From Halocalculus aciditolerans (GTDB lineage: Archaea > Halobacteriota > Halobacteria > Halobacteriales > Halobacteriaceae), in NCBI RefSeq assembly GCF_014647475.1, contig NZ_BMPG01000007.1, positions 4,696 to 68,695 on the forward strand: a DNA stretch of 64,000 nt. Direction: 5' to 3'. Under the pieces are notes generated by a model that had not been told where the DNA came from, ran no database searches, and saw only the letters and a list, made by a program, of their open reading frames with translations. Below are positions 25,507 through 55,892 of this stretch, one piece after another (position 1 is the stretch's first letter; each line of letters begins with the position of its first letter). The translations under genes were made by a program, and so were the position numbers.

Positions 25507-25572
25507 GTCGAACCGCCGCATCGCGGGTCTCGTCAGCGGGGGAGAGCAGAAAGTGCGCGTCGGTGCGTATGC

Positions 25573-39482: not shown

Positions 39483-39947
39483 TTAGGCGTCGAGGCGGGC
39501 GTGGATGCGGTCGCGGTAGGGTTCGAGGGTCGCGTCGATCCAGACTTCGGCGTCGTAGGTGACGTCGAGAAGGGTTTCGGCGCGGTCGTCGTCGCCGGGG
39601 CCGAGCGCGGCGACGTCGGTTTCGAGGCGGGAGCGGAGCGCGGCGGCCTTCTCGGGTTCCGTGACGTCGCGGCGGTCGATGTCGAGGATGTGCGGGAGGT
39701 CGTCGGCGTCGTCGGGAACAGTTGGAAAGGCGGCGGGGCCGGGCGCGACGAGGACGTCGCCGTCGTGCGGGACTTCGAGGAGGCGGTAGTCCGCGGTGGC
39801 GGCGTCGACGGCGTCCTCGACGGCGGCTTCGTCGAGGTCGCGGCCGTCGCGGAACGCGAGTTCCACGAGCGCCTCGGTGAGCTCGTCGCGCGTCAGGCCG
39901 CCGAAGAGGTCGACGATGCCCGCGAGCTCGTCGTGCGTTCGCTGCAT
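39483..39947 (-). CDS. hypothetical acidic protein (154 aa)
   Basis: Clean ORF of typical haloarchaeal composition. Confidence 0.5.
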   Translation of the reverse strand: MQRTHDELAGIVDLFGGLTRDELTEALVELAFRDGRDLDEAAVEDAVDAATADYRLLEVPHDGDVLVAPGPAAFPTVPDDADDLPHILDIDRRDVTEPEKAAALRSRLETDVAALGPGDDDRAETLLDVTYDAEVWIDATLEPYRDRIHARLDA

Positions 39948-40004
39948 ACTCCCTCGAACCGGCTTCTCGCCTATGAGTCTACTGCCTGCCGTGCGAGACT
40001 CTCT

Positions 40005-41105
40005 CTACCGGTCGCGGGCGGCGGCGAGGTCGTCGCGGGCGGCGGCGACGACCGCGGCGGGGTCGAGGTCGGCGTCCGCCCACGCGGGGAGGCGGGTGTC
40101 CGCGCCGGGCGGGGCGATGGCGTCGGCGTACGCGGCCACCTGCTCGCGTTCGCCGTGTTCGTCGTGCGCGAAGTCGTTGAAGGCGGCGTCGGCGGCGTAC
40201 GCGCGGACGTGGCGCTCGGCGGCGTCGCGGTAGGCGGCGGTGAGTTCGTCGTAGTCGACGGTCGCGCCGTCCGCTTCGACGGCGTGGAGGACGGCCGCGC
40301 CGACGCCGTCGCTCATGTCCGTGAGGCCGGAGGGGCCGGAGACGGCGCGGTGGTCGTGTTCGTAGCGGCCGAGGTCGACCTGCGCCGCGGCGTCGCTGCC
40401 GGCGACGCGGTAGGCCTCCGCGAGCACGCCGACTTCGAGCCCCCAGCGCCGCCGGACGCGGACGCGTCGCGCGAGGTCGGCGGTGAGCGCGCATTCGCCG
40501 GCGAGCGCGTACCGGAACGCGTCGAGGTAGTCGACGACGGGCGCGTCCGTGACGTCGCCGAGCGCGGCGACGAGCGGTTCGTAGAAGAGCCGACAGAGCC
40601 GGCCGTAGAGCCGGTCGTTCTCCACGCGGGCGTAGTAGCCTTTCGCGAAGTCGTGCCCGCGCGTGAGCGGGAAGAGGAGTTTGCGGACGTCGCGGGCTTC
40701 GTAGGTAGTGGTGTCGGCGTCGTGGACGGCGACGAAGTCCGCGCGGTCGGCGGCGTGGCCGAGCGCGAGCCAGATGTCGCGGCCCTTCCCGCTCTCGCCG
40801 TCGAGGCCGGCGTCGGCGAGGCGGTCGGCGAGCCGCGGCCCCGTACACCAGAGGACGTCGAGCGGGAGGTCGAAGCCGTCGAGCCAGTCGGCGAACGCCG
40901 GGGCGCGTTCCGGGGACGCGCGGAGCGGGACGACGACGCGTTTCGGCTGGAGCGTTTCGAGTTCGGAGAGGACGGCTTCGGTGGCGAGCGCGGTGTACTC
41001 GCGCTCCGTCATGGGGACGACGACGGCGGCGTCGGCGACCGGGGCGTCGGGGTTCGCGCGCCCGAAGTCGTGGAGCGTCGTCACGCGCTCCTGCGTGTAA
41101 TCCAT
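40005..41105 (-). CDS. GT-A-fold glycosyltransferase-like protein (possibly glucosyl/mannosyl-3-phosphoglycerate-synthase-like)
   Basis: Opens AAVVVPMTERE, has a DxD-like VHDADT and is about 366 aa. The specific function is uncertain. Confidence 0.45.
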   Translation of the reverse strand: MDYTQERVTTLHDFGRANPDAPVADAAVVVPMTEREYTALATEAVLSELETLQPKRVVVPLRASPERAPAFADWLDGFDLPLDVLWCTGPRLADRLADAGLDGESGKGRDIWLALGHAADRADFVAVHDADTTTYEARDVRKLLFPLTRGHDFAKGYYARVENDRLYGRLCRLFYEPLVAALGDVTDAPVVDYLDAFRYALAGECALTADLARRVRVRRRWGLEVGVLAEAYRVAGSDAAAQVDLGRYEHDHRAVSGPSGLTDMSDGVGAAVLHAVEADGATVDYDELTAAYRDAAERHVRAYAADAAFNDFAHDEHGEREQVAAYADAIAPPGADTRLPAWADADLDPAAVVAAARDDLAAARDR

Positions 41106-41144
41106 ACGCGTGGCGAGGGCGTGCGCGCCGAAAAAACACGCCGG

Positions 41145-42425
41145 TTACTCGTGAGACGCGGTCGGGAGGACGCCGCCGCGGTGCGCGAGGAGGACGGTGA
41201 GGGCGACGACGGCGACGGCGACGGCGGCGACGCGGAAGATGCCGTCGTAGGAGAACCCGGCGGTGCGGAGGCCGCCGACGAGGACGCCGCCGCCGGCCTG
41301 GAAGAGCATCGTGACGGCGGAGTAGGCGGCGTAGGCGCTCGCGCGGTCGGCGTCCGGCAGGGAGTCGAGGAGGAAGGTGTCGACGGTCGGGAAGATGTGG
41401 TGGATGGCGTAGCCGACGACGACGGTGGCGGCGACGACGGCGTAGAGGCCGCGGGCGTAGGTGAAAGCGAAGAGCGAGCCGGCGAAGGCGGCGGGGACGC
41501 CGACGAGGAGGACGATGTAGGAGAGGCGGTCGGCGAGGCGGCCGGCGAACCAGAACGCGGGGATGCCGGCGGCGAACATCACGGTGAGAAGGGTGCGGGC
41601 GGTGGCGGCGTCGACGACGCGGGCGTCAGTGACGTAGGAGACGTAGAAGTTGAAGAAGCCGTTCCAGACGATGCCGGCGACGCTCATGACGAGGATGCCG
41701 GTGAGGACGAGCGGGAGGCGGCGGCGGGTCGCGCCGAGGAAGTCGCGGTCGCCGCGGCCGGCGGCGGGCATGCGGTCGGCGGCGACGGCGGCGCGCGAGG
41801 AGACCGCGAGCGCGGCAGTGCCGAGGAGGGCGGCGGCGGCGAGCAGCCAGAAGACGAGTCGCCAGTCGCCGACGCCGAGGACGACGCCGACGGCGAGCGG
41901 GGCGACGACGGCGGCGGACTGGCTCGCGGTGCCGTGGATGCCGATGACGCGGCCGACGCGGTCCGGGAAGAGCTCGCTCACGAGCGGGTTGCCGGCGATG
42001 AAGTAGACGCCGGAGGCGACGCCGACGAGGAACGCGCCGACGGCGACGGCAGTGACGCTCCCCGCCATCGCGGTGCCGGCGCTCGCGGCGGCGAGGAAGA
42101 CGCCGTCCGCGATGATGACGTGGTGGCGGTCGAAGCGCGTGAGGAGGTAGCCGGTCGGGAGGCGCGGGAGGGCGCTGCCGAGCCACGCGAGCGACGCGAT
42201 GACGCCGACGGTCGCGGCGTTCACGCCGAACGCCGTTTCGAAGGTGTCGAGGAGCGGTGCGAAGGTGATGCGGCCGAAGTTCACGAGGAAGACGACACCG
42301 CAGAGCGACCCGAACACGCGGAGTCGGCGGTCGTCGCTCTCGGTGGACTGAGACACGACCGCGAGTCGGACGGCGTCGGCCTTCAGCCTCTCGGTTCGAC
42401 ACCGCCACGAGCGTTTTACGTCCAC
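41145..42425 (-). CDS. MFS transporter
   Basis: Twelve TM segments and a 6+6 organisation. Confidence 0.85.
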   Translation of the reverse strand: MDVKRSWRCRTERLKADAVRLAVVSQSTESDDRRLRVFGSLCGVVFLVNFGRITFAPLLDTFETAFGVNAATVGVIASLAWLGSALPRLPTGYLLTRFDRHHVIIADGVFLAAASAGTAMAGSVTAVAVGAFLVGVASGVYFIAGNPLVSELFPDRVGRVIGIHGTASQSAAVVAPLAVGVVLGVGDWRLVFWLLAAAALLGTAALAVSSRAAVAADRMPAAGRGDRDFLGATRRRLPLVLTGILVMSVAGIVWNGFFNFYVSYVTDARVVDAATARTLLTVMFAAGIPAFWFAGRLADRLSYIVLLVGVPAAFAGSLFAFTYARGLYAVVAATVVVGYAIHHIFPTVDTFLLDSLPDADRASAYAAYSAVTMLFQAGGGVLVGGLRTAGFSYDGIFRVAAVAVAVVALTVLLAHRGGVLPTASHE

Positions 42426-42442
42426 TCTGCGTAGGCCGCGTC

Positions 42443-42613
42443 ATGGACTCTGTCCAGAAGGGGCTGCGAGGCGGCGCGCTGGAGAAGGACACCTACGACC
42501 GGCTGGTGTGTTCGGACTGCGGCGAGCAGTTGAAGACGAAGGCGATGCCGGACGAAGTCTACTCGGTGCGCGTCTGCCCGGAGTGCGGACTGGAGTGGCG
42601 GCAGTTAGGCTGA
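42443..42613 (+). CDS. small zinc-ribbon protein (56 aa)
   Basis: Encodes MDSVQKGLRGGALEKDTYDRLVCSDCGEQLKTKAMPDEVYSVRVCPECGLEWRQLG with CxxC...CxxC. The track omits it as under 60 aa. Confidence 0.45.
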   Translation: MDSVQKGLRGGALEKDTYDRLVCSDCGEQLKTKAMPDEVYSVRVCPECGLEWRQLG

Positions 42614-43486
42614 CCGGCGCGCGTCGACGGCGGCGCGATAGCCCTCGCGGAACGTCGGATACTGGAAGTCGTAGCCGCGCTCGTGGAGGCGGTGGTTCGA
42701 GCAGCGTTTGCTCGTGGTGACGCGGCGACACGCGGCCTCGGAGAGGTCGCCGTCGTCGAGGCGTTCTTCTTTCGTTCGTTTCGGCGGGCGCTGGCGGTCG
42801 CACTGGTCGGCGAGCCAGTCGGCGAACTCCCACTTCGAGACCGGTTCGTCGTCGACCGCGAGGAGGGTGTCGTCGCCGGGTTCGTCGAGCGCGAAGCGGA
42901 CGACGCCGGCGGCGTCATCGCGGTGAATCATGTTCAGGTAGCCCTCGGTGACGGGGCCGTCGAGGTAGCGGTCGAGCCGGTAGCGGTCGGGGCCGTAGAG
43001 GCCCGCGAACCGAACGACCGTGGGCGTCATGCCGTATTCGGCGGCGGAGCGCGCGACGTCCTCCGCCTCCGTGAGGACGCGCGTCTTCTCCGTCGTCGGC
43101 TCCAGCGGCGTGGACTCGTCCACCCAGTCGCCGCCGTGGTCGCCGTAGACGCCCGTACTGGAGGTGTAGACGAGGCGGTCGGGGGCGTCGTCGCGCGCGG
43201 CGAACGCGTCGACGGCGGTGCGGAGGCCGTCGACGTAGACCTCGCGGGCCGCCGCGGCGTCGCGGCCGCCGGAGCTCGCGATGAAGACGAGCGCGTCGAC
43301 GTCCGGCACGCGCGCGAGCGAGTCGGCGTCCGTCACGTCCGCCTGCACCGCGTCGATGCCGTGGGTTTCGAGCGTCTCGATGCCGTCGTCCGACCGGCGC
43401 ACGCCGACCGGGTGGTGGCCGGCGGCGTCGAGCTGGCGGGCGAGTTCGATGCCGACGTAGCCACAGCCGAGGATGGCGACGCGCAT
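42605..43486 (-). CDS. NAD-dependent epimerase/dehydratase family protein
   Basis: Opens with Rossmann MRVAILGCGYVG and has a YxxxK-like active-site region. Confidence 0.85.
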   Translation of the reverse strand: MRVAILGCGYVGIELARQLDAAGHHPVGVRRSDDGIETLETHGIDAVQADVTDADSLARVPDVDALVFIASSGGRDAAAAREVYVDGLRTAVDAFAARDDAPDRLVYTSSTGVYGDHGGDWVDESTPLEPTTEKTRVLTEAEDVARSAAEYGMTPTVVRFAGLYGPDRYRLDRYLDGPVTEGYLNMIHRDDAAGVVRFALDEPGDDTLLAVDDEPVSKWEFADWLADQCDRQRPPKRTKEERLDDGDLSEAACRRVTTSKRCSNHRLHERGYDFQYPTFREGYRAAVDARRSA

Positions 43487-43491
43487 CGGCG

Positions 43492-43920
43492 CTACCAGGG
43501 GTTCTCCGCGGCGAGGTGGTGAGTGATGCGCGCGTACTCGCCGATCGTCATCGGGTGGCGGCCTTCGACGCGCTGTTGGACTTCCTTCGCGTCGAGGTCG
43601 TCGTCGATGGCGGCGGCGAGCGACTCGACGTCGACGATGGCGGAGCTCATCTCCAACATCACGTGGTCCTGGACTTCGAGTTTGAGGGTTTCGGCGTCAG
43701 GCCAGTCGTCGGTGAGCGCGAGGATTTCGGCGGCCTCCGTGACCGTGATACCCGCCGACTCGCCCGCGCGGATGGCGTCGAGTCGGTCCGCGTCGATGCC
43801 GGTCTCGGCGGCCGCGGCGTCGACGCCGACGTCGTCGAGTACCGTCTCCAGCGTCGCTTCGTACTGGGCGCGGACGTCCGCGGGCGACGCCGCGTCCGCG
43901 TCAATCTGGTCGGTGAACAT
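43492..43920 (-). CDS. hypothetical acidic protein (142 aa)
   Basis: Trimmed to ATG 43920 (MFTDQIDAD); the upstream part of the track ORF is Arg/Pro-rich junk. Confidence 0.5.
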   Translation of the reverse strand: MFTDQIDADAASPADVRAQYEATLETVLDDVGVDAAAAETGIDADRLDAIRAGESAGITVTEAAEILALTDDWPDAETLKLEVQDHVMLEMSSAIVDVESLAAAIDDDLDAKEVQQRVEGRHPMTIGEYARITHHLAAENPW

Positions 43921-43954: not shown

Positions 43955-46768
43955 TCACCAGCCGGTCGAGCGTTCGTCGGCGTTCCCGTCGGTGTCGCCG
44001 ACGCCGCGCGGCCCGGGCGGGACGACCACGACGACGACGGTCGAGACCGAGAACGTGACCTCCTCGTTCCGGCCGACGACCTCTCGCGCGCCGTCGCCGT
44101 CCACGTCGACGCGCACGGTCTCGTTCTGCCGAACGTAGGTGAGCGAGTCGTTCCCGGGCGTGTGCGTGCGGGCGGTGACGGCGACGCGCTCGTAGCCGCC
44201 GCGGGCGGAGACCACCCAGGCGTTCGCGGTCGCGTACCAGTAGCCGGGAACGGGCGCGATGGGGAGGCCGGCGGGCAGTTGTGCGAGCCGCTGCTTGGCG
44301 GCGCGGCGCGCCGCGGCGTCGTCGAGTTTCTCGCCGAGCACGCGCTCGCCGGCGTCGGCGACGCGGTGGGCGGCTTCCCGCTTCGCCGCGTCGCCGATGC
44401 GGTTCGCGCCCTCCGCGGTGACTGCACTGAGAGCGGTCTGCGCGCTCCGTCGCGCGTCGGTGACGCGGCCGCCGGGCACGCGGCCGCGCGTCCGCCGCGC
44501 CTCGCGGAGCGCCACGCGGAGCGCGATGCGGAGCCCCGGAGCGTCCGCGCCGCGCGCCGCGGCCTCACGCGCGACCGTGGACGCGAGCGAGCCGTTCACC
44601 GCGGCGGTCGCCGTCACGGCTGGGCCATCGTACCGGGCGAACGCGGCGTCGACGGCCGCCCGACGAGCGTCCTCGGTGAGGGTTGTTCGGCGCGCGAGCG
44701 CGTCGACGAGCGGCGGCCGCAGTCGGTCGGTCGCGGCGGCGACGTCGGAGCGGAGCGCGGCGCGCCGCTCGCGCAGCGTCGCGTTACCGCGGACGCCGTC
44801 GAGCGCGCGGAGCGTGGTGACGGCGGAGGCGAGCGACGCGTCCGCGGGCGGGTCGGGAACGACGGCGTCGGCGACCGCGTCCCCGGCGTCCGCGTAGGGG
44901 ACGGTGAAGAGATTCGTGTTCCGCGTGGCGAGCGGGTAGCGGCCGTCGACGCGGCTCGTCGAGAGGTACGACGGCGTCCCTCGAACGGAGAGCACTGGGG
45001 AGTCCCCGGCAGAGGCGTTCGCGGTTCGCTCCGGTCGGGCGGTCGCGGCGGCGAGCGGCTGGTCGGCGTGAGCAGCGACGACGCGGCGCACGGCGTCGAA
45101 CCCGCCGGTTTCGCCGCGGAGACGCTCGACGACCGCGTCGAGGTAGGCGGCGCGGGCGGCGGTCGCGGCGCGCGCGTCGAGCGAGCGATACCGCGCCGGC
45201 GCGTCGACGAGCGCGGCTCGTTGCTCGGCGAGTCGGTCGGCGAGCCGACGGCGCGGATTCGCGTCGAGTCCCGCCCCGGGGGAGAGAGTCGTGGAGAGCG
45301 CCCGGGTGAGGCGGTCGTGGAGGCGCGTGACGTTCCGAACAGCCACTTTTCGGGCGTTCTCGGGGACGCTGAGGGGAACGGTCGCGGCGGTCGTGCTCGC
45401 GCCGCCGTCGGCGGCGCGGCGGGCGAGCGTGTCGACGCCGCCGCGCGCACGGACGACGGCGTTCGACGCGTCGCGGAGCAGACCGGTAGGCTGGTCGACG
45501 AGCGCTCGATCCGGCGCGCGGCCGTCGGGTGCGGCGCGGCCGACGACGGCGACGGTCACGAGGCTGGTCGTCGCGAGCGACGCGTTCCCGACTCGGCGGA
45601 CGGTCCGGACGCGTCGGTGGCGTGTCGCGAGGCGCACGAAGCCCCCGGGCGTGGCAACCGCGGGGCCGCGCTCTGCGGCCGTAACCCCGGCGCGCGCGGC
45701 GGTGGCGTTTACGCGACGGGTACTGAGTGTCGTCGCCGCGGTTTCGACGCGGATGCGGCCGCGGTAGGTGTCGCGGAAGACGCCGTCGAGGTCCTCGTCG
45801 AGGGCGAGAAACGCGCGGTCGGCGGTCGCGTTCACGTCGACGGAAACCGCCTTCTTCTCGCCAAGGAGCGTGCCGGCGGCGTCGCCGGGTAGGCCGGGTG
45901 AGGCGGGCGCGCCGCCGACAGCGCCAGCGCTCGGGCCGAGGAGGTCCTGCACGCCGGTTTCGACGGCGGCTCGGCGATACCGAGTGGTCGCGCGGGCGTC
46001 GGCGCGGCCGAGTGTCTCACGCTGGACGCCGAGAACGGCGGCGTTCGTCGTGACAGCGACGTGGCGGGTGGCGAGGACGTTCGCGACGGGCGCGCCGCCG
46101 TACTGCGCCCAGCCGCGGCCCCACGCGACGACGGTGGCGCGGGCGGTGAGGCGGCGACCGAGGCCGGGGCCGTCGAGCGGGCCGGCGTCGAGTCGCGCCG
46201 CGTAGTCGGCGACGCGGTCGTGGAGACCGAGCACGGGCGTGGCGACGGCGACGGTCACGGCGGTAGTTTCACGGGAGACGACGCGTCCGTCGCGGCGAAG
46301 CGTGAGTCGGAGGCCGGTGACGGTGACGTTCGTCCCGCCGTCGGCGCGCTCGGCGAGGTGGACGCGGCCGATGGCGCGTTCGGCGTCCGCGGGCGAGTCG
46401 ATGCCGGGGAGGGCGACGGTCGCCGTCACGTCGCCGCGGCGCGTGGTCGTGTTCGCGAGCGCGCGCCGGACGGCCGCGTAGGTCCGGAGGCGGAGGGCGT
46501 CCCGGAAGGCGTGGTCGGCGCGGAGGGCGTCGCCGTAGGGGCCGGCGGGCGCGACGACCGGGTGTGCGGCCGCCGCTCGCGCCGCGCGGGTCGCGCCGTC
46601 GGCGACGGCGAGGCGCGCGAGCACGGTGGCTTCGCGGGCGGCAGCGTCGGTGTCCGGCGTCGTGGCCTGTGGCGCGGCGAGGGAGACGTGGCTGGCGACG
46701 CCCGCGCTCGCGACGAGCAGGGCGACGCCGACGAGGGCGAGCGGGACGCGGCCGCGTTCGTCGGTCAC
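43955..46768 (-). CDS. large (937 aa) Ala/Arg/Thr-rich protein with N-terminal pilin-like hydrophobic segment; last gene of the Tad-like locus (TadG-like?)
   Basis: A GTG start overlaps the stop of the upstream pilin-like gene (GTGA). The N-terminus VTDERGRVPLALVGVALLVASAGVA is pilin-like, and the rest is low-complexity but continuous, with no internal stops over 2.8 kb. Confidence 0.5.
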   Translation of the reverse strand: MTDERGRVPLALVGVALLVASAGVASHVSLAAPQATTPDTDAAAREATVLARLAVADGATRAARAAAAHPVVAPAGPYGDALRADHAFRDALRLRTYAAVRRALANTTTRRGDVTATVALPGIDSPADAERAIGRVHLAERADGGTNVTVTGLRLTLRRDGRVVSRETTAVTVAVATPVLGLHDRVADYAARLDAGPLDGPGLGRRLTARATVVAWGRGWAQYGGAPVANVLATRHVAVTTNAAVLGVQRETLGRADARATTRYRRAAVETGVQDLLGPSAGAVGGAPASPGLPGDAAGTLLGEKKAVSVDVNATADRAFLALDEDLDGVFRDTYRGRIRVETAATTLSTRRVNATAARAGVTAAERGPAVATPGGFVRLATRHRRVRTVRRVGNASLATTSLVTVAVVGRAAPDGRAPDRALVDQPTGLLRDASNAVVRARGGVDTLARRAADGGASTTAATVPLSVPENARKVAVRNVTRLHDRLTRALSTTLSPGAGLDANPRRRLADRLAEQRAALVDAPARYRSLDARAATAARAAYLDAVVERLRGETGGFDAVRRVVAAHADQPLAAATARPERTANASAGDSPVLSVRGTPSYLSTSRVDGRYPLATRNTNLFTVPYADAGDAVADAVVPDPPADASLASAVTTLRALDGVRGNATLRERRAALRSDVAAATDRLRPPLVDALARRTTLTEDARRAAVDAAFARYDGPAVTATAAVNGSLASTVAREAAARGADAPGLRIALRVALREARRTRGRVPGGRVTDARRSAQTALSAVTAEGANRIGDAAKREAAHRVADAGERVLGEKLDDAAARRAAKQRLAQLPAGLPIAPVPGYWYATANAWVVSARGGYERVAVTARTHTPGNDSLTYVRQNETVRVDVDGDGAREVVGRNEEVTFSVSTVVVVVVPPGPRGVGDTDGNADERSTGW

Positions 46769-47193
46769 GGCGACCACGTCCGAACGACGAGGGTCGCGTC
46801 GGGCGCACCGGGGAGGGCGGCGGTGGCGGCGCGGACACGGTCGCCGTGCGGCGGCGGCCCGGCGGCGAGTACGCGCTGCCCGGTCGTGACGAGTGTAAGG
46901 TTCGCCCGCGGGACCGCCAGCCCGAGCGCGCGCTCCGCGGCGCGTGCCGCACACGCGGGCGGAGTTCGGTTGGCGGCGGCGCTGGCGAGGAGGTCGCCGA
47001 GCGGCGCGCGGACGCGGCCGGCGCGGCCGGTGCAGGAGACGTTCGCCGTCACGGGAAGAACGGCGTCGGCGACGCGGTGTGGCGACGGCGCGGGGTCACT
47101 AGGTGGCTGCGCGGCGACGAGCACGGCGATGGCAGCGGCGACGAGGAGGACGGCGAGGGCGGCGTCGAGCGGCGTGCTGACGGCGCGGCTCAC
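46765..47193 (-). CDS. pilin-like / pseudopilin-like small protein 3
   Basis: A GTG start overlaps the upstream stop (GTGA), and the N-terminal hydrophobic helix is DAALAVLLVAAAIAVLVA. Confidence 0.4.
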   Translation of the reverse strand: MSRAVSTPLDAALAVLLVAAAIAVLVAAQPPSDPAPSPHRVADAVLPVTANVSCTGRAGRVRAPLGDLLASAAANRTPPACAARAAERALGLAVPRANLTLVTTGQRVLAAGPPPHGDRVRAATAALPGAPDATLVVRTWSP

Positions 47194-47576
47194 GTCCACA
47201 CCACCACGCGGAGGCGGCCGAACGCGACCCGCCCGCCGGTGCGAACGGGGAGCGGACGCGCGGCGGCCGGCGCATCTCTCGGCGGGCGCGGCCCGACCGA
47301 CCACGCGCGGGTCGCCGCGCGGAGCGTGACGTTCAGCGAGAGACCCGCGGAGCGTTCGAGGTTCGCCAATTTCGCAGGTCGGGCGACGCCGCCCGCGGTG
47401 ATTTCGTCCGCGACGTGGTCGAGCGTGGCCGTCGGCTGCGCCGTCGCCTGTCCGGGGAGCGCGCGGCCGTAGACGGTGGCGTACGTGCCGACCGCGGCGA
47501 CGACGGCGAGGACGGCGACGAGCGCGGCGAGCGGCTCCGTCTGCGCGCTATCCGACGAGCGTCGCATCGACGTCAC
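47190..47576 (-). CDS. pilin-like / pseudopilin-like small protein 2
   Basis: N-terminus MTSMRRSSDSAQTEPLAALVAVLAVVAAVG pairs a short polar leader with a hydrophobic helix. Confidence 0.45.
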   Translation of the reverse strand: MTSMRRSSDSAQTEPLAALVAVLAVVAAVGTYATVYGRALPGQATAQPTATLDHVADEITAGGVARPAKLANLERSAGLSLNVTLRAATRAWSVGPRPPRDAPAAARPLPVRTGGRVAFGRLRVVVWT

Positions 47577-48018
47577 CCCAGGTGACGTGGCGGACGCGGA
47601 GGCGGTCGGTCGTCAGCCAGCCGCCGGCGCGGGTTCGAGCACGGGCGAGCGCTCGCTCGACGGCGTCGCGGAACGCGGCGGGCGTCTCGAAGACGTCCCG
47701 AACGTCTCGACCGGCGAGGACGGCCGCGAGCCGGCCGGACGCGGGGACGACGGGGCCGTAGCGGAGGGTGGCGGTCGCGGTGCCGCCGTCGGAGCGGAGG
47801 GAGAGCCGGGCGGGGTGGAGGCGGACGGCGTCGGCGCGGACGGGGAGCGTGCGACGCGTGGGATGGTCGCTGGCGGCGACGGCGTCGACGGCGCGGGCGA
47901 GCGCGGCGGCGTCGGGCGGCGGGGCGGTCGGAACGGCGAGAGCCGCGGCGAGGAGGACGGCCGTGACGGCGGTGAGAGCGACCCAGACGGGGAGCGTGTC
48001 GGCGGCGAGCGTCGGCAT
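47548..48018 (-). CDS. pilin-like / pseudopilin-like small protein 1
   Basis: Opens MPTLAADTLPVWVALTAVTAVLLAAALAV. This is the C-terminal part of junk track ORF 47548..49518; the real ATG is at 48018. Confidence 0.45.
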   Translation of the reverse strand: MPTLAADTLPVWVALTAVTAVLLAAALAVPTAPPPDAAALARAVDAVAASDHPTRRTLPVRADAVRLHPARLSLRSDGGTATATLRYGPVVPASGRLAAVLAGRDVRDVFETPAAFRDAVERALARARTRAGGWLTTDRLRVRHVTWGDVDATLVG

Positions 48019-48052
48019 ACGCCCGTATGGCCGCGGTATCGGGTAAAAAGGT

Positions 48053-49759
48053 TCAGACGAGGCGGCCGGTGGTGCAGAGCGTCGCGGGGAAGACGACGCT
48101 GGCGGCGAGGAGGCCGCGGCCGGCTGCGCCGGCGAGCGCGGTTCGGTCGAGCGGGCCGTCGAGGCCTGCGGCGAGCACGGGGAGGAGGGCGGCGAGCCAG
48201 AGGACGTACGCGCCGACGACGAGCGCGAGCGTGCCGACCGCGAAGGTCTCGGTGGGTGCGCCCGCGCTGGCGGCGGCGAGCGGGGTGCCGGCGGGCTGGC
48301 CGAGGCCGCGGACGCGACCGGCGAGCGCGACGGTTGCGCCGGCGATGCCGGGGGCGAAGAAGCGGCCGGTGGTGCGGAGCGTACCGGTGGTGTGGCCGAG
48401 TTCGGCGCGGAGGTCGGCGGCGAGTTCGTGGAGGCCGTGCCGGGCGTCGGCGTAGTCGCGGAGCACGCGGCCGCCGCGCGGGCCGGCGTCGGCGGCGGTG
48501 ACGAGGAGGCGTACGGTGCGAGCCACGCCGGGGAGCGCGTCGGTGGGGAGCGCGCCGTAGGGCCCCGAGACCGCGTCGGTGGGTGTGAGGGAGAGCGCGC
48601 GACGACGGGTGGCGGCGTCGGCGAAGACGTCGCCGGTCGAGCCGGGGACGGAGCCGGCGGCGGTGAGGGCGCGCTCGGGCGGGTCGCCGGCGACGAGTCG
48701 GGTGGCGGCGGCGGTGGTCGCGGCGGGGAGGCCGCGGGCGACGCGTTCGTAGCGGTCGCGTATCGCCTCGCGCGGCCGGGAGAACGCGAGGAGGCCGATG
48801 CCGAGGGCGAGGCCGACGCCGGTGACGGGGGCGGCGGTGGGGACGACGAGCCGGCAGGCGAGCGAGCCGGCAACGCCGGCGGCGAGACCGAGCGCGAGCG
48901 GACCTGCCGGAGAGTCGGGGACGTCCGGGTGGTCGGTGGGGACGCCGGGGGCGGGGAGGGCGAGGGGGCGGCGGGCGACGAGCCACGCGCTGGCGGCGGC
49001 GAGCGCGAGCGGGAGCGCGACGTCGTAGCAGAGAGCGAGCGCGCCGAGGGGAATGGTCGCGCCGGCGCTGGGGAGGACGGGGAGGACGCCGACGAGGGCG
49101 AGGGGGAGGACGACGCCGAAGGCGTAGACGCCCGAGACGGGGCCGTGGAGGGCGGCGGCGTAGTCGCCGAAGCGTTCGCGGGTGGCGCGGCGCGCGGCGG
49201 CGACGGCGGCGTCGAGGAGACGGTCGCGTTCCGCGGGCGGCGCGTCCGTCGCGGCGTCGAGGAGTGCGAGCGACCCGGCGAAGGCGGGGGAGCGGTCGGC
49301 GACGCGCTCGCGGAAGGCCCGCCAGCCCGCGACGGGGTCGCCGTGTGCGGCGGCGACGCAGCGAGTGAGTTCGCGGCCGAGCGGGCCGTCGCTCGCCGTG
49401 TCGACGGCGGCTTCGAGCGTGCCGTGGAGGGCGATTCCGAGGGTCGCGCGACAGACGAATCCGGGACCGTCACCGTCGGCGCGCGCTCGGTCGGCAGCGG
49501 CGAGGAGGCGCGGCCCACAGAGAACGGCGGCTGTCCCGCTCGCGCCGAGGAGGCAGACGACTGCGGCGAGGAGGGGTGCGAGGGGGGCGCAGGCGACGGT
49601 GAGCACCGCTGTGGCTGCGGCCGCGAGGATGGCGAGCGAGCGGAGCGTCCGACTCCCGGTCTCCCAGCCGACGCGGGCGAGCGCCGCGTCGAGTTCGCGG
49701 TCGCGGCCGGGGTCGATCGGGACGGCGGCCGCGAGCCGGCGGAAGGAACGGGAAGTCAC
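48053..49759 (-). CDS. type II secretion system F-domain membrane protein (TadC/FlaJ/PilC-like)
   Basis: Two repeats of a cytoplasmic helical domain plus TM bundle, 568 aa, with the start overlapping the ATPase stop. Confidence 0.7.
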   Translation of the reverse strand: MTSRSFRRLAAAVPIDPGRDRELDAALARVGWETGSRTLRSLAILAAAATAVLTVACAPLAPLLAAVVCLLGASGTAAVLCGPRLLAAADRARADGDGPGFVCRATLGIALHGTLEAAVDTASDGPLGRELTRCVAAAHGDPVAGWRAFRERVADRSPAFAGSLALLDAATDAPPAERDRLLDAAVAAARRATRERFGDYAAALHGPVSGVYAFGVVLPLALVGVLPVLPSAGATIPLGALALCYDVALPLALAAASAWLVARRPLALPAPGVPTDHPDVPDSPAGPLALGLAAGVAGSLACRLVVPTAAPVTGVGLALGIGLLAFSRPREAIRDRYERVARGLPAATTAAATRLVAGDPPERALTAAGSVPGSTGDVFADAATRRRALSLTPTDAVSGPYGALPTDALPGVARTVRLLVTAADAGPRGGRVLRDYADARHGLHELAADLRAELGHTTGTLRTTGRFFAPGIAGATVALAGRVRGLGQPAGTPLAAASAGAPTETFAVGTLALVVGAYVLWLAALLPVLAAGLDGPLDRTALAGAAGRGLLAASVVFPATLCTTGRLV

Positions 49760-51552
49760 GTTTCCTCCCGGAAGCGGTCGGCGCGCGCGTCGATGGCGGC
49801 GCGGACGTCGGCGTAGGTCTCGTCGGGTGCGGCGAGCGCGGCGACGGCGGCGCTCTGCCCGCGGTCGATGCGGCCCGTCGCGGCGAGCCCGGTCGGCCCG
49901 CGGGTGTAGAGTTCGGCGGCGGCGTCGGGGCCGGCGACTTCCTCGATGGTCGTGACGCGTCGCCCGTCGGGGGTGGGGGCGAGCGTGACGACGAGGTCGG
50001 TGGCGGCGAACGCGGCCGGGGTGACGCCGAGGTCGGCGACGCGGCCGCGGAGTTCCGCCGCGCCCTCGCCGTGGACGGTGCCGAGGACCGCGCCGTCGTG
50101 CGCGCCGACGCGCATCGCCTCGAAGAGCGCGGGGGCTTCCTGGCCGCGGATTTCGCCGACGGCGAGCGCGCCGTCGCCGAGGCGGAGGGCGGTGCGGACG
50201 GCGTCGGCGGGCGTGAACGCGCCGCCGGGGTCGGCGCGGAGGCCCTGGGCGTCGCGGTCGGCGTCGCGGAGCGCGGCGAGCGGGAGTTCGGGCGTGTCCT
50301 CGATGGCGACGAGGCGCGTGGACGGCGGGAGCTCCCAGCAGAGCGCGCCGAGGAGGGTGGTCTTCCCCGCGCCGCGGGGGCCGGCGAGGAGGCAGGCCGC
50401 GCCGCGCTCGACGGCGAGGGAGAGAAAGCCCGCGGCGGCGGGGGTGACGGTTCCGTTGGCGACGAGGGCGGTGAGCCGCCAGGGGTCGCTGTCGGCGGCG
50501 CGGACGGCGAACGCGGGGCCGTCGCTGACGGGGTCGGTGACGGCGGCGGCGCGGACGCGGTCGCGGGTGCCGACGCCGGTCGCGGTGGCGTCGAGCGTCG
50601 GGCTGGCGGCGGAGAGCGGGCGACCGCTCGTCGCGCGGAGGCGGGAGGCGAGGGCGTCTGCGCCCGCGGCGGAGAGAACGGCGTTCGTGGTCATCGTCTC
50701 GCCGTCGACGACGACGCGGAGCGGGGTGTCGTCGGCGGGGGCGGTGGCGTAGACGTCCGTCACGCGGGAGTCGGCGAAGAGGTCGTCGAGCACGCCGAAC
50801 CCGCGGGTGTGTTTCCGGAGGACGGCGGCGAGGTCGGCGGTCGGGTCGTCGCGGCCGGCGACGCGGCGGACGGCGGCGGTCGCGGCGCGCGCCCCGCCGA
50901 GTGCGCCGTCGGCGAGCCGGGCGGCGGCGGCGTCGAGCGTCGCGTAGTCGTCGGCGTCGAAGGCGGCTTCGCGGGGCGTGACGTGGTAGACGGGGAGAGG
51001 GTCGGCGTCGTAGACGCGGACGGTCGCGCCGGCCGTGTCGCGGGTGTCGCGGAGGCGGGCGTCGGCCGGCGGGTCGGGGTCGAGGCGGGCGTGAGCGAGC
51101 GTCGGGCCGTCGAACGTCCGGACCCCGTCGTAGCCGGGGTGGGCGTCGGCGACGGCTGCGAGTGCGGTTTCGGCGGCGATGCGGGCGACGGGGCCGGCGC
51201 GGCCGGCGGCGGCGCTGGCGGCGGAGAGGGGGTCGGTGGCGGCGCGGTCGGCGAGGCGGTCGTCGTGGACGGCGGCGCGTTCGGCGAACCGGCCGGCGGC
51301 GAGGAGGAGCGCGGCGGTCGCCGCGTCGTAGCGGCTGTCGACGCCGGGGCGGCGGACGACGACGCGGTCGGCGTCGGCGCGGCGGAGCGCGCGGACGGCG
51401 GTGGCGCGGCAGGCCGGGGCGTCGGCGAGGCGGCCGTCGCCTGGGCAGTCGGCGGCGTCGAGTCGGAGCGTCCCGGCGTCGACCGTGGCATCGCAGGCGC
51501 AGGCGGCAGTGCCGTCGGGTCGCCCGCGGAGTCCACCGAGTCGTTCGAGCAT
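49756..51552 (-). CDS. type II/IV secretion ATPase (TadA/CpaF/FlaI/PilB family)
   Basis: Walker A LLAGPRGAGKTTLLGAL, the Asp/Glu box LVAIEDTPEL, GEIRGQEA and His box GTVHGEG. Trimmed to ATG 51552. The N-terminus carries an unusual Cys cluster (CACDATVDAGTLRLDAADCPGDGRLADAPAC). Confidence 0.85.
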   Translation of the reverse strand: MLERLGGLRGRPDGTAACACDATVDAGTLRLDAADCPGDGRLADAPACRATAVRALRRADADRVVVRRPGVDSRYDAATAALLLAAGRFAERAAVHDDRLADRAATDPLSAASAAAGRAGPVARIAAETALAAVADAHPGYDGVRTFDGPTLAHARLDPDPPADARLRDTRDTAGATVRVYDADPLPVYHVTPREAAFDADDYATLDAAAARLADGALGGARAATAAVRRVAGRDDPTADLAAVLRKHTRGFGVLDDLFADSRVTDVYATAPADDTPLRVVVDGETMTTNAVLSAAGADALASRLRATSGRPLSAASPTLDATATGVGTRDRVRAAAVTDPVSDGPAFAVRAADSDPWRLTALVANGTVTPAAAGFLSLAVERGAACLLAGPRGAGKTTLLGALCWELPPSTRLVAIEDTPELPLAALRDADRDAQGLRADPGGAFTPADAVRTALRLGDGALAVGEIRGQEAPALFEAMRVGAHDGAVLGTVHGEGAAELRGRVADLGVTPAAFAATDLVVTLAPTPDGRRVTTIEEVAGPDAAAELYTRGPTGLAATGRIDRGQSAAVAALAAPDETYADVRAAIDARADRFREET

Positions 51553-51574
51553 GCGGGTGGGTCGCCGCGTACTC

Positions 51575-52048
51575 CTACTTAGAGTCTCGCGCGACGCGGA
51601 CCATCGACCGATTCGCCGACCGGACGTAGCGGAGCGCGAGCCGGGCGCGTTCGCCGCTCTCGACGGTGAGTCGACGGCCGGCGGCATCGGTCGCGAGCGG
51701 GAGTCGGGTTCGCGTCGCGTGCGTCCGGCCGTTCACGCGGTAGCCGACCCGCGAGCGGTTCGCGCGGCCGACGTCGGCCGCTGGCGGCGGGTCGAGGAAG
51801 ACCGAGACGCGCGGGAACGTGAGCGAGGGGGGCGGGATACGAACGGCGAGACGCCGGACCGCGCCGGGGGCGTCGGGCGGCGTCGGGTCGCTCCGCTCGA
51901 CGAGCGCTCCGACGGCGTCGAGGAGTCGCGCCGTCTCCGTCGCGCCGACCTGCGCGCCGCGGTCGGTGCGCGCGGCGTCGAGCGCGGGCGTCGTGGCAGC
52001 CAGGAGCGCGGCGGCGAGCACGACGCCGACGACGACTCGGACGATCAC
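51575..52048 (-). CDS. membrane-anchored protein (N-terminal TM helix), second gene of the Tad-like operon
   Basis: MIVRVVVGVVLAAALLAATTPAL is followed by a 130-aa extracytoplasmic region. Confidence 0.45.
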   Translation of the reverse strand: MIVRVVVGVVLAAALLAATTPALDAARTDRGAQVGATETARLLDAVGALVERSDPTPPDAPGAVRRLAVRIPPPSLTFPRVSVFLDPPPAADVGRANRSRVGYRVNGRTHATRTRLPLATDAAGRRLTVESGERARLALRYVRSANRSMVRVARDSK

Positions 52049-52575
52049 AGGCGCGCCCGGAGCCGCGCGAGGAGGCCGGGCGCGCTCGCGCGTGACTCAG
52101 CGGCGTCACGGTCGAACGCGCCGCGGTCGAACCCACTACGTTCGAGGGCGTCGCGTCCGGGTTCGAGTGCATCCTCGGATCCGGTTTGAGCCGCGTCGTC
52201 GGGGCGGTTTTGGGGTGTGTCGTCCGGTGAGCCGCGGGGTGTTCGCGCGGGGCCCGGGCCGCCGTTCGGGACCGGGTCCGCGTCGGCTTCGAGGCGGTCG
52301 ACGGCGGCGAGGGCGGCGTCGGCGCGGCGCTCGACGGCGTCGTTGACGGTGTCGAGTTCGCCGGCGAACCCGCGCACCGCCTGGAGGTCGGCGTCGAGTC
52401 TATCGAGTCGGGCTTCGACGTCGTCGAGGCGGGCTTCGAGCGCGCCGGTGTCAGGGCCGGATGTCGCGAGCAGCGCGTCAGCGTCGGTATCGGCGGCGTC
52501 AGCGGCTGCGTCGTGGCCAGTGGCGCGCCGTTCGAGGGCGCGGACGCGGGCGGCGAGCGTTTCGGTGTCGGGCAC
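52045..52575 (-). CDS. coiled-coil acidic protein, first gene of the Tad-like operon
   Basis: Heptad-like Asp/Ala/Leu-rich repeats, with the stop overlapping the next gene's start. Confidence 0.45.
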   Translation of the reverse strand: MPDTETLAARVRALERRATGHDAAADAADTDADALLATSGPDTGALEARLDDVEARLDRLDADLQAVRGFAGELDTVNDAVERRADAALAAVDRLEADADPVPNGGPGPARTPRGSPDDTPQNRPDDAAQTGSEDALEPGRDALERSGFDRGAFDRDAAESRASAPGLLARLRARL

Positions 52576-52683
52576 GCGGTTGGCTGGCCGCGCGATACTA
52601 TGTGAACGTTCGGACGGGGCGGTGGGCTAGTCGTCGTTGAAGCCTCCCGAACGTTGAAGGGACAAGAACGTGACAAACTGCGT

Positions 52684-53763
52684 ATGAAGGCAGCCGTCGT
52701 CGGTGTCGGGCAGGCGGGCGGAAAGCTCGCACAGGCGCTCACAGAGTACGACTCCCGGACGGGATTCGACGCCGTCGAGGGCGCGCTCGCGGTGAACACG
52801 GCCCGACAGGACCTCGAAGGCCTCGACCTCCCGACAGTGCTCGTGGGGCAAGAGCGCGTGGCGGGGAACGGCGTCGGCGGCGACAACGAGCTCGGCGCGT
52901 CGGTGATGCAGGCCGACGCGCCGATGGTGCTCGACGAACTCGACGGGATCGTCCGGTCGAGCACGGAAGCCATCTTCGTGGCGGCAGGGCTGGGCGGGGG
53001 GACGGGGTCGGGCGGCGCGCCCGTGCTCGCCCGCCAGCTCTCCCGCGTCTACGACGCGCCGGTCTACGTGCTCGGCGTGCTCCCCGGGAAGGACGAGGGG
53101 GCGCTCTACCAGGCGAACGCCGGGCGGTCGCTGAAGACGGTGTCGCGGGAGGCAGACGCGGTGCTCCTCGTGGACAACGACGCGTGGCGGGAAGCGGGTG
53201 AGAGCGTCGGGGACGCCTACGCGGCCATCAACGAGCGCGTCGCGAAGCGCGTCGGCCTCCTGCTGGCGTCCGGTGAGGCCGTGCAGGGAGTCGGCGAGTC
53301 CGTCGTCGACTCCTCCGAGGTCATCAACACGCTCCGGAAGGGCGGGCTGGCGGTGCTCGGGTTCGCGGACGCACCGGCCGCGGCGGACGCGGGAGAGAAC
53401 GTGAACGTCATCACGTCGACGGCGCGGAAAGCCCTTCTCACGGGCACGAGCGTGCCGAACGTCGTCGACGCGGACGCGGCGCTGGTGGTCGTCGCGGGCG
53501 ACACCGACCGGCTGTCGCGGAAGGGCGTAGAGCGCGCTCGCCAGTGGGTGCAAGAGCAGACCGGGTCGATGGAGGTACGCGGCGGCGACTTCCCGCTCGA
53601 CGGCGAGAAGCTCGCGGTGCTCGTCCTGCTCGCGGGCGTCACGCGAAACGACCACATCCAGTCGTTCGTGGACCGCGCGCGGGACGCCGCCGAGGCGGAC
53701 GCGGAGGACGCGCCCGACCCGGCGGCGGCGTTCGAGAACGACGAGCTGGACGGGCTCTTCTAA
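52684..53763 (+). CDS. cetZ: tubulin/FtsZ-superfamily GTPase, CetZ-like
   Basis: Tubulin signature GGGTGSGGAPVLA and the N-terminal nucleotide loop VGVGQAGGK. Trimmed to ATG 52684; the track start at 52654 is a TTG. Confidence 0.85.
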   Translation: MKAAVVGVGQAGGKLAQALTEYDSRTGFDAVEGALAVNTARQDLEGLDLPTVLVGQERVAGNGVGGDNELGASVMQADAPMVLDELDGIVRSSTEAIFVAAGLGGGTGSGGAPVLARQLSRVYDAPVYVLGVLPGKDEGALYQANAGRSLKTVSREADAVLLVDNDAWREAGESVGDAYAAINERVAKRVGLLLASGEAVQGVGESVVDSSEVINTLRKGGLAVLGFADAPAAADAGENVNVITSTARKALLTGTSVPNVVDADAALVVVAGDTDRLSRKGVERARQWVQEQTGSMEVRGGDFPLDGEKLAVLVLLAGVTRNDHIQSFVDRARDAAEADAEDAPDPAAAFENDELDGLF

Positions 53764-54489: not shown

Positions 54490-54885
54490 CTACGGGTTCG
54501 GGCGGTCATCGTCGCCGACGCCGGTGCCGGCGGTGGTGCCGAGCATCGCCGCGCCGGCCGCGAGCGCCACGGCGACCGTCCCGGTGAGTCCGACGGCGAG
54601 GACGACCGCCGTTCCGACGCCGCCCGCGACCAGCCCGCCGGCGATGCCGGTGAGGACGACGGTCGCGGCGCGCCGCGGGTCGTCCGGGACGCTGCCGGGG
54701 CGGGCCGCGGCGTCGAGCGGCGGATAGAACACAGCGAGCATCGCGACGGTCGGTGCGGGGTCCGGCGCGAGAGCGCTCGTGACGACGACGGCGGCGATCC
54801 CGGCGACGACGCCGGCGAGCGCGAGGGCCGCCCGCGAGCGGAGTGAGTGGAGGGACACGTCGTGAGATTGTCGAAGTACGAACAA
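54490..54885 (-). CDS. small membrane protein (3 predicted TM helices)
   Basis: The ORF is hydrophobic but Gly/Ala-rich, so it could be spurious. Confidence 0.35.
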   Translation of the reverse strand: MFVLRQSHDVSLHSLRSRAALALAGVVAGIAAVVVTSALAPDPAPTVAMLAVFYPPLDAAARPGSVPDDPRRAATVVLTGIAGGLVAGGVGTAVVLAVGLTGTVAVALAAGAAMLGTTAGTGVGDDDRPNP

Positions 54886-54929: not shown

Positions 54930-55892
54930 TCAGACCGGGATGGAGTCCTCGGCCTCTAAGAGTTCGTGGTAGCGGTTGCGGATGGTGACTTCGCTGATGT
55001 CGGCGACCTCGGAGACGGCGGCCTGCGTGGTCTTCTCGTTGGTGAGGAGAGCGGCGGCGTAGACGGCGGCTGCGGCGAGGCCGACAGGGCTCTTACCGGA
55101 GTGGACGCCTTTGTCCTTCGCGGTCTTGAGGAGGTCGCGGGCGCGGTGTTCGGCTTCGTCGGAGAGGCCGAGGCTGGAGGCGAAGCGAGGGACGTAGCTC
55201 TCGGGGTCCGCGGGGCGTACCTCGAGGGAGAGTTCGCGGACGACGTAGCGGTAGGTGCGGGCGATCTCGTCCTTCTCGACGCGGGAGACGTCGGCGATTT
55301 CGTCGAGGCTGCGGGGAACGCCGGCCTGCCGGGCGGCGGCGTAGACACAGGAGGTGGAGACGCCCTCGATGGAGCGACCGGGGAGGAGGTCTTCTTCGAG
55401 CGCGCGGCGGTAGATGACGGAGGCCATCTCGCGGACGTTGTCGGGGAGGCCGAGCGCGGACGCCATGCGGTCGACTTCGCCGAGCGCCTGCTTGAGGTTG
55501 CGTTCTTTGGCGTCGCGGGTGCGGAAGCGCTCGTTCCACTTCCGGAGGCGCTGCATCTTCTGGCGCTGGTTCGAGGAGAGCGAGTTGCCGTAGGCGTCCT
55601 TGTCGCGCCAGTCGATGTTGGTGGAGAGGCCCTTGTCGTGCATCGTGTTCGTCGTCGGCGCGCCGACGCGGGACTTCTTGTCCTTCTCGGCGGAGTCGAA
55701 GGCGCGCCACTCGGGGCCGCGGTCGATGCCGTCTTCCTCGACGACGAGACCGCAGTCGACGCAGACGGTCTCGCCGTGTTCGTCGTCGGTGGCGACGAGG
55801 CCGCCGCACTCGGGGCACTCGTTTGCGTTCTCGCTCTGTTCGTCCGTCGTCTCGTCTTCTTGCTGCCGTGACCGGAATCGTGCGTTCGTCAT
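54930..55892 (-). CDS. tfb: transcription initiation factor IIB (second TFB paralogue)
   Basis: Zn ribbon CPECGG...CVDCG, two cyclin repeats and about 75% similarity in conserved blocks to the TFB at 6504-7457. Confidence 0.95.
   Translation of the reverse strand: MTNARFRSRQQEDETTDEQSENANECPECGGLVATDDEHGETVCVDCGLVVEEDGIDRGPEWRAFDSAEKDKKSRVGAPTTNTMHDKGLSTNIDWRDKDAYGNSLSSNQRQKMQRLRKWNERFRTRDAKERNLKQALGEVDRMASALGLPDNVREMASVIYRRALEEDLLPGRSIEGVSTSCVYAAARQAGVPRSLDEIADVSRVEKDEIARTYRYVVRELSLEVRPADPESYVPRFASSLGLSDEAEHRARDLLKTAKDKGVHSGKSPVGLAAAAVYAAALLTNEKTTQAAVSEVADISEVTIRNRYHELLEAEDSIPV

Follow-up and report, generated by a model that had tools for sequence, protein, structure and literature searches.

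Does the eight-gene type IV filament operon found in a 64-kb stretch of the Halocalculus aciditolerans genome (hereafter the window, with a GC content of ~70%) encode a distinct Tad-like system, as an earlier note on this DNA had considered from its gene order, or is it a locus already described in haloarchaea? Our results argue for the second answer. Based on its gene set, gene order and neighbours, we hold with good confidence that the locus is the H. aciditolerans orthologue of the haloarchaeal type IV filament (TFF) subclade, or subsystem, 4F, the PilB2/PilC2 regulon of Haloferax volcanii, and it probably also corresponds to pil-2 of Halobacterium salinarum. This type of locus is already known and its description here adds little as a discovery; a distinct Tad-like system is not borne out. 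The eight co-directional minus-strand open reading frames (ORFs) reported earlier at 43955-52575 are present, and when Pfam's curated cut-offs were applied to the eight products, seven matched a family with a score over the cut-off, which is far beyond chance. In the order of transcription, the operon reads as follows.

52045..52575, minus strand: DUF7310 coiled-coil protein, 176 aa (Pfam PF23991, E 7e-21)
51575..52048, minus strand: DUF7311 protein, 157 aa (Pfam PF23993, E 1e-31)
49756..51552, minus strand: PilB2-type secretion ATPase of the FlaI/GspE2/CpaF superfamily, 598 aa (Pfam T2SSE, E 3e-21)
48053..49759, minus strand: predicted PilC2-type platform protein, a divergent T2SSF/TadC/FlaJ member, 568 aa (from orthologues and a structure model)
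47548..48018, minus strand: DUF7283 pilin-like protein, 156 aa (Pfam PF23954, E 3e-42)
47190..47567 (or to 47576), minus strand: DUF7285 pilin-like protein (Pfam PF23956, E 1e-26)
46765..47193, minus strand: DUF7284 pilin-like protein, 142 aa (Pfam PF23955, E 5e-6, at its cut-off)
43955..46768, minus strand: DUF7286 giant, 937 aa (Pfam, E 3e-243)

All eight ORFs are intact and have lengths typical of their orthologues. Two products of the region are 100% identical to H. aciditolerans proteins. That of the last gene, in sequence and length alike, equals the NCBI entry "DUF7286 family protein [Halocalculus aciditolerans]", which bears out the 937 residues first called for it, while the DUF7285 protein has 125 aa from an ATG at 47567 or 128 aa from a GTG at 47576. 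Four 4-nt start/stop overlaps had been noticed between adjacent genes (52045-48, 49756-59, 47190-93 and 46765-68) and all four lie where they were placed. On the coding strand each of them reads GTGA, as had been said of the latter pair; the ATGA given for the former pair does not hold. The DUF7311 gene starts with a GTG that overlaps the upstream stop in this way, the DUF7284 gene has a GTGA overlap at both of its ends, and the operon genes are translationally coupled. A literature search on the DUF numbers found no paper.

The assignment rests on features that others have attached to this subclade. In its text on 4F, the survey of Makarova et al. 2016 (PMC4858521) describes a mainly halobacterial and methanomicrobial group, naming Methanocella, with an ATPase whose N-terminus is Cys-rich, euryarchaeal-type pilins, a frequent S-layer-like protein, a unique cytoplasmic coiled-coil protein (arCOG07564) and an ftsZ-like neighbour. 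In Haloferacales and Halobacteriales, the pilB2/pilC2 regulon (arCOG01818) adjoins cetZ2, arCOG04674 and the epimerase arCOG03095 (Brown & Duggin 2023, PMC9856176), and a recent preprint reports that "subsystem 4F" co-localises with CetZ2 and has an adhesin-like protein (Sivabalasarma & Albers 2026, bioRxiv 10.64898/2026.04.22.720090). The locus studied here shares this plan. It has a FlaI-family ATPase with a Cys-rich N-terminal domain (T2SSE match; four invariant Cys) followed by an adjoining TadC/PilC-type (T2SSF) platform gene, a Halobacteria-specific cytoplasmic coiled-coil protein encoded by the first gene (DUF7310), and several pilin-like proteins with predicted class III (PibD) signal peptides. 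Its one large protein, the 937-aa DUF7286, has a pilin-type N-terminus and matches no solved fold; it is probably the counterpart of what is called the "S-layer-like" or "adhesin-like" component of 4F. A CetZ gene lies divergently 108 bp upstream, a DUF5791-type gene and an epimerase gene lie downstream, and the system is restricted to Halobacteria with relatives in Methanomicrobia, all as in 4F and H. volcanii pilB2-pilC2. Synteny at a Haloferax elongans locus (L024), together with the literature, ties the operon to the H. volcanii genes as their orthologue. We found no substantive difference; in this copy the cleavage motifs of DUF7283 and DUF7285 are degenerate and the products are unusually basic (pI ~11). 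The DUF7310 protein is acidic (isoelectric point, pI, 4.4), lacks a hydrophobic segment, is predicted to be cytoplasmic and is found in 63 of 80 related loci; going by the description in the same 4F text of PMC4858521, it is probably arCOG07564, the signature accessory protein of 4F.

The neighbourhood is the second line of evidence. The genes and the spacer that flank the operon are these.

52576..52683: divergent intergenic region of 108 bp, from the first operon gene to cetZ
52684..53763, plus strand: CetZ tubulin-like protein, 359 aa (Pfam CetZ_C, E 9e-60; Tubulin, E 4e-29)
43492-43920, minus strand: DUF5791 small acidic protein (Pfam match), directly downstream of the operon
42605-43486, minus strand: NAD-dependent epimerase (Pfam match), downstream, after DUF5791

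A scan using one genome per species recovered at least 563 relatives; from these, 80 loci (L001-L080) were kept, and their gene order was derived from tblastn and an iterative hidden Markov model search of ORFs. The full order DUF7310-DUF7311-ATPase-PilC-DUF7283-DUF7285-DUF7284-DUF7286 is present in 52 species-representative haloarchaeal loci from Halobacteriales, Haloferacales and some Natrialbales; loci that depart from it are mostly truncated contigs or non-haloarchaeal relatives. The eight Pfam families are found in this order in Halobacterium species too, and in one assembly with independent gene calls and precomputed Pfam labels (Halobacterium GCA_001485535.1) exactly the same eight genes recur, with CetZ upstream and divergent and DUF5791 and the epimerase downstream. 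Flanking genes were counted for 53 complete operons, using only those with enough flanking sequence (51 downstream, 49 upstream). DUF5791 is the next gene downstream in 43 of 51, and in 41 the epimerase comes after it; on the upstream side, 32 of 49 have a divergent CetZ. In 14 operons DUF5791 is present and CetZ absent. The sampled loci show a linkage to the operon that is no looser for DUF5791 and the epimerase than for cetZ2. The downstream pair are probably arCOG04674 and arCOG03095, and the CetZ of the window is identified as CetZ2 by synteny only. The earlier note had named clustering with known haloarchaeal PilB/PilC of adhesion pili, in an identical neighbourhood, as a finding that would speak against its Tad-like reading, and an identical neighbourhood is what the 52 haloarchaeal loci have. 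The 108-bp spacer presumably holds the promoters of both the operon and cetZ; a scan with a bacterial sigma-70 promoter and terminator model gave no match and is uninformative, since that model does not apply to archaea.

The ATPase carries the four motifs by which it was first recognised, the Walker A box GPRGAGKTT, VAIEDTPEL, GEIRG and the His box GTVHG, at residues 391, 415, 466 and 491, and their key residues are invariant across 26 aligned haloarchaeal orthologues.

50356-50382, minus strand: Walker A
50284-50310, minus strand: Asp box
50143-50157, minus strand: Walker B (GEIRG)
50065-50082, minus strand: His box

The long ATPase ORF reaches to 51687 and overlaps the upstream DUF7311 gene by 113 nt. 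The ATG at 51552 (MLERLGG) fits the N-termini of the aligned orthologues, in which M1 is invariant, and gives a protein of 598 aa, inside their length range; it is likely to be the start, rather than the ORF maximum. In the N-terminal extension that follows, C18, C20, C36 and C48 (~51409-51501) are invariant in 26 of 26 haloarchaeal orthologues, and this Cys-rich segment may be a metal-binding N-domain. Orthologues occur across Halobacteria at 53-63% identity. When 1.84 billion cluster representatives were searched, scores fell sharply after ~40 of them, and the matches past this drop have 35-47% identity over the core, the named ones coming from Methanocella, Methanolobus and an unclassified euryarchaeote. 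The genome scan added relatives from Thermoplasmatota, each with an adjoining PilC homologue, so that the closest non-haloarchaeal ATPases are from Methanocella, Methanolobus and Thermoplasmatota; the last are not named in what PMC4858521 sets out under 4F. Eight of these relatives, from metagenome-assembled genomes labelled Thermoplasmatota or "Methanobacteriota" (L071, L073, L075-L080), are low in GC and pair an ATPase of 32-39% identity, with a likewise Cys-rich N-terminus, with a ~660-aa PilC. Downstream pilin-like genes, a coiled-coil gene and CetZ are all missing from them and, since they consist of ATPase and PilC only, they were set aside as uninformative about a Tad-like order.

The platform gene (48053-49759) had been called TadC/FlaJ-like. 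Its product has no Pfam or NCBIfam match of its own, even at E 5, and its homologues are all haloarchaeal, mostly annotated as hypothetical, at 34-44% identity. PF00482 (T2SSF) is matched by 15 of 30 aligned orthologues, one of them over the gathering score (27.4 versus 25.2 bits), at positions equivalent to residues ~356-472 of the window protein. The structure model is all-helical, with two transmembrane-helix repeats and a cytoplasmic helical bundle; an hhalign test for an internal repeat (E 0.11) is suggestive at most. Orthologues and model together support the original call, and we describe the protein as a predicted, very divergent member of the PilC/TadC/FlaJ family.

Could the operon nonetheless be a bacterial-type Tad/Flp system, gained by horizontal transfer from Actinobacteria, for example, and distinct from the described haloarchaeal PilB/PilC loci? 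It shares with bacterial Tad pili the ATPase superfamily and the order ATPase, platform, small pseudopilins, large pseudopilin, which resembles tadA-tadC-tadE-tadF-tadG. The top NCBIfam match of the ATPase is TIGR03819, the actinobacterial TadA family, CpaF structures are among its matches, the operon exceeds the rest of the window by 8 GC points, and an actinobacterial origin of pil-2 has been speculated upon (Losensky et al. 2015, PMC4292770). However, the ATPase stays under every NCBIfam equivalog cut-off, TIGR03819 scoring 133 bits against a required 373 and FlaI 80 against 550, and among solved structures the archaeal GspE2 of A. fulgidus (94 bits) outscores CpaF (80) and FlaI (62), so it does not score as a member of the TadA/CpaF clade, and those of its relatives that carry names and fall next to the haloarchaeal clade are archaeal. 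No product among the eight matches Flp, TadE/F/G, TadV or TadZ in Pfam or NCBIfam at E <= 0.01, and no second platform protein, as in the TadB and TadC pair, was found beside the single 568-aa PilC-type gene. Compared with the bacterial set of TadA/CpaF, TadB, TadC, Flp, TadE, TadF, TadG, TadV, TadZ and RcpA, the locus thus has one platform gene, lacks Flp, TadE/F/G, TadV, TadZ and secretin homologues, and encodes an ATPase nearer to archaeal proteins. With a neighbourhood identical to that of a described haloarchaeal locus as well, a transferred Tad system has next to no credence in our view. In our tests, the resemblance in gene order came with no tie to bacterial Tad. By analogy with TadG, DUF7286 may serve as a large minor pilin. 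Denise and colleagues reportedly proposed, in 2019, an archaeal origin of the bacterial Tad pilus, in which case the resemblance would amount to shared ancestry. The other part of the original classification, a type IV filament operon that is not an archaellum, agrees with our searches: archaellins, FlaF/G (ArlF/G), FlaH (ArlH) and ArlC/D/E have no family match in the eight products.

The high GC content of the operon deserves comment on its own account. It is 0.78, against 0.70 for the rest of the window, and across the orthologous loci, 52 of 52 have an operon with more GC than its flanks, by a mean of 4.6 points. The excess sits in codon positions 1 and 2 (GC2 0.58-0.66 versus 0.41-0.49), while GC at position 3 (GC3) equals that of the flanking genes, and therefore reflects proteins that are rich in Ala and Arg, nearly free of Lys and poor in Asp and Glu. 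For the same reasons, GC3 equal to the flanks, an excess confined to positions 1 and 2 and recurrence in every locus, we rejected high GC as a mark of horizontal transfer, and it counts against the Tad transfer just discussed. A related peculiarity is charge: the DUF7311, DUF7283, DUF7285, DUF7284 and DUF7286 products have a pI of 11.1-11.8 compared with a median of 4.5 for the 47 other genes of the window. Across 55 species the net charge of DUF7286 ranges from -151 to +89, with 55% of copies basic and no correlation with GC. In view of this variation we rejected basicity as a conserved functional property, such as DNA binding; it is a lineage-variable oddity with no conserved functional signature. 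The sole other soluble-looking basic product of the window is encoded at 24859-25521 on the minus strand (220 aa, pI 10.2, grand average of hydropathy -0.76).

We judged whether the small proteins and the giant are pilin-like from their N-termini. We defined these from alignments of stop-to-stop ORFs, taking the onset of conservation and counting motifs in each family (the slash marks the position of cleavage).

DUF7285: R-[GA]/Q-[VT]-E-P and a hydrophobic helix in 53 of 56; window copy S-A/Q-T-E-P
DUF7286: R-[GA]/R-[VI]-P-F-A-L, then a hydrophobic helix, in 52 of 56; window copy D-ERG/RVPLAL
DUF7284: R-[AG]/V-S-T-V-L-D in 31 of 55; window copy MSRA/VSTPLD, then a hydrophobic helix
DUF7283: M-x-x-x-[AP]-x-[DE]-x and a hydrophobic helix, position -2 acidic in 58 of 58 and position -1 G or A in 36 of 58; window copy D-T
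DUF7311: begins straight with a hydrophobic helix, the [KR][GA] motif occurring in 0 of 64; window copy without a site

Judged from sequence, four of the operon proteins have pilin-style N-termini, that is, a short leader and then a hydrophobic helix. DUF7285 and DUF7286 are good candidate PibD substrates, DUF7284 is a putative substrate in some lineages only and DUF7283 a doubtful one. DUF7311 looks like a plain membrane anchor and is probably a membrane-anchored assembly or alignment component. By family, the class III-type site is conserved in DUF7285, DUF7286 and part of DUF7284; DUF7283 offers just the acidic position -2. Among the window copies, DUF7284 and DUF7286 alone have the canonical [KR][GA] site of class III type. 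Beyond its N-terminus, DUF7286 has a multidomain body of mixed alpha/beta structure.

Several observations weigh against the locus being a functional 4F pilus machine. In two reviews H. volcanii PilB2 falls into subclade 4C, not 4F, whereas the CetZ and coiled-coil features point to 4F. No major pilin gene and no PibD gene lies within the 64-kb window, no deletion phenotype has been reported for 4F or PilB2-PilC2, and no filament has ever been attributed to the system. The DUF7286 fold has no match among solved structures, so "adhesin" is only a label. The window copies of DUF7283 (D-T/LPVW) and DUF7285 (S-A/QTEP) lack a canonical cleavage site, and most DUF7284 orthologues without [KR][GA] appear from the alignment to be leaderless, with an M or V start right before T-S-T-V-L-D. 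The orthologues concerned are those in L007, L011, L018, L024-L026, L030-L032, L035-L038 and L045; where DUF7284 is leaderless, a "mature" pilin-type N-terminus would be made without cleavage by a signal peptidase. Finally, in Hbt. salinarum every one of the three sequenced strains has a pilC2 with an in-frame stop, and NRC-1 pilB2 is broken by a 10-kb insertion (PMC4292770), and the system is therefore dispensable there.

The pil-2 locus of Hbt. salinarum is another near counterpart. It comprises pilB2 (OE1347R), pilC2 (OE1344R) and three prepilin genes, all three FlaFind-positive; it is haloarchaea-restricted, GC-rich and co-transcribed, is induced 8.5-fold in adherent cells and is weakly expressed, with a threshold cycle (CT) of 31 versus 21 for pilB1 (Losensky et al. 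2015, PMC4292770). It has in common with the H. aciditolerans operon an ATPase and a PilC followed by small genes, FlaFind-positive in pil-2, as well as restriction to haloarchaea and high GC, and differs in its interrupted pilC2 and, in NRC-1, pilB2, all genes being intact here. These interruptions raise the question of whether the operon is a decaying, non-functional remnant, a view that also accords with the fast evolution of its products (35-45% identity versus 60-70% for flanking genes) and with the degenerate cleavage motifs of two window genes. Yet the eight ORFs are intact at orthologue-typical lengths, the catalytic residues are invariant, and the full set and order are kept in 52 species-representative genomes, a retention that is unlikely without purifying selection. 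We regard decay as quite improbable.

A functional 4F machine is thus the reading we favor, and we envision the following scenario. A hexamer of the ATPase would dock on the PilC2 platform and energise it. PibD, encoded elsewhere, would cleave after the [KR][GA] motif of DUF7285, DUF7286 and, in many species including this one, DUF7284. The four single-copy, stoichiometrically coupled pilin-like proteins could then assemble into a priming or tip complex in which the 937-aa DUF7286 is distal and exposed at the surface; beneath this complex, a PilA-type major pilin encoded in trans would be polymerised as the shaft. DUF7310 and DUF7311, and perhaps the neighbouring CetZ2, may regulate or position the machine. 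Adhesion would be its most likely output.

Minor-pilin priming or tip complexes are found in the bacterial type II secretion system (T2SS; GspH-I-J-K) and in type IVa pili (T4aP; FimU-PilVWX-PilY1). The proposed tip complex is analogous to these and to the minor-pilin and large-adhesin complexes of bacterial type IV pili (T4P), T2SS and Tad, in that four single-copy, co-translated pilin-like proteins would include one that carries or recruits a very large distal subunit. The likeness is an analogy and draws on neither sequence nor fold. Closer at hand are the adhesion pili of H. volcanii, PilB3-PilC3 with PilA1-6 and PilB1-PilC1 (clade 2 and subclade 4C), which share with the locus the type of machine, an ATPase, a platform and PibD-processed pilins, and in which major pilins can be in trans and shared among machines. 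They differ from 4F in belonging to other ATPase clades with other pilin families, in having no DUF7310 coiled-coil gene, DUF7286 giant or CetZ linkage, and in that their adhesion phenotypes have been demonstrated, whereas 4F has none. The "PilB2-PilC2" of Natrinema sp. J7 (PMC12426801) lies beside pilA genes; its name is no proof of orthology and it was not used.

The four operon proteins might instead make up a short pseudopilus or a membrane-anchored envelope complex on their own, with no long pilus. Such a complex could take part in organising the envelope or in shaping the cell, working with CetZ2 and possibly with the epimerase; alternatively, it might function as a secretion piston or bindosome-like scaffold. 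This would fit the lack of a PilA-type major pilin in the operon or within 64 kb and the translationally coupled, fixed order of four pilin-like genes that are all single-copy. It would fit, too, the absence of [KR][GA] from DUF7311 and DUF7283 and the leaderless DUF7284 of most site-less orthologues, the tight linkage of CetZ, DUF5791 and the epimerase to the operon, the very low expression in Hbt. salinarum (CT 31 versus 21 for pilB1; PMC4292770) and the atypical, often basic composition of the products. However, in the 4F text of PMC4858521 the major pilin is usually encoded elsewhere, stand-alone PilA-type pilins (arCOG02981 and arCOG10216) are tied to 4F and archaeal major pilins are said to be commonly in trans; CetZ is absent from about one third of the loci; and Brown & Duggin 2023 (PMC9856176) assign arCOG04674 and arCOG03095 to cetZ2, away from the pilus genes. 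We consider a pseudopilus the main rival, albeit an unlikely one; in its favour, the operon comes with no linked major pilin, certain members are without cleavage sites and no filament has been attributed to the system. A bolder form of the idea, which we hold to be more doubtful still, has CetZ2 positioning an envelope-spanning complex of DUF7283, DUF7285, DUF7284 and DUF7286 with no major pilin, in place of an adhesion pilus; its Arg-rich, often strongly basic ectodomains would engage polyanions, for instance surface glycans, DNA or the acidic S-layer. If true, it would provide a direct connection between a tubulin-like cytoskeleton and a machine for type IV filaments.

Some features of the window lie outside this argument. 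Very long alternative-frame or antisense ORFs occur at 47548-49518 (minus strand), 48392-49816, 44162-45892 and 39501-42434 (all plus strand), and arise because of the 75-79% GC. They were rejected as genes on their wrong codon-position GC pattern, among them a 977-aa ORF rich in Gly, Asp, Glu and Arg and the 656-aa, Pro/Ser/Arg-rich ORF at 47548-49518, a high-GC artefact whose 3' end is the real DUF7283. Upstream of the operon by 2.3 kb, past cetZ and a type I dehydroquinase gene, lies a TFIIB homologue (54930-55892, minus strand). Transcription factor B (TFB) genes are found within 10 kb in 18 of the 80 related loci, and TFIIB homologues are noted as frequent in T4P loci in the portion of Makarova et al. 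2016 (PMC4858521) that deals with them. Between the dehydroquinase and TFIIB genes there is an ORF of 131 aa (54490-54885, minus strand) with two hydrophobic segments, R-A before each of them and a coding-like GC3, which falls outside the operon families.

Loci of this type were listed in a 2016 catalogue; the tie to cetZ2 followed in 2023 and a re-classification in 2026, and Pfam families exist for seven of the eight products. The locus matters as a functional question: a conserved eight-gene TFF machine stands beside a tubulin-like gene in a large share of haloarchaea. For work in Haloferax volcanii, our analysis provides handles in the strict gene order kept across 52 species and in which of the pilin-like proteins have conserved PibD sites, and further ones in the apparently leaderless DUF7284 of many species and in a linkage of DUF5791 and the epimerase to the operon that is tighter than that of CetZ.

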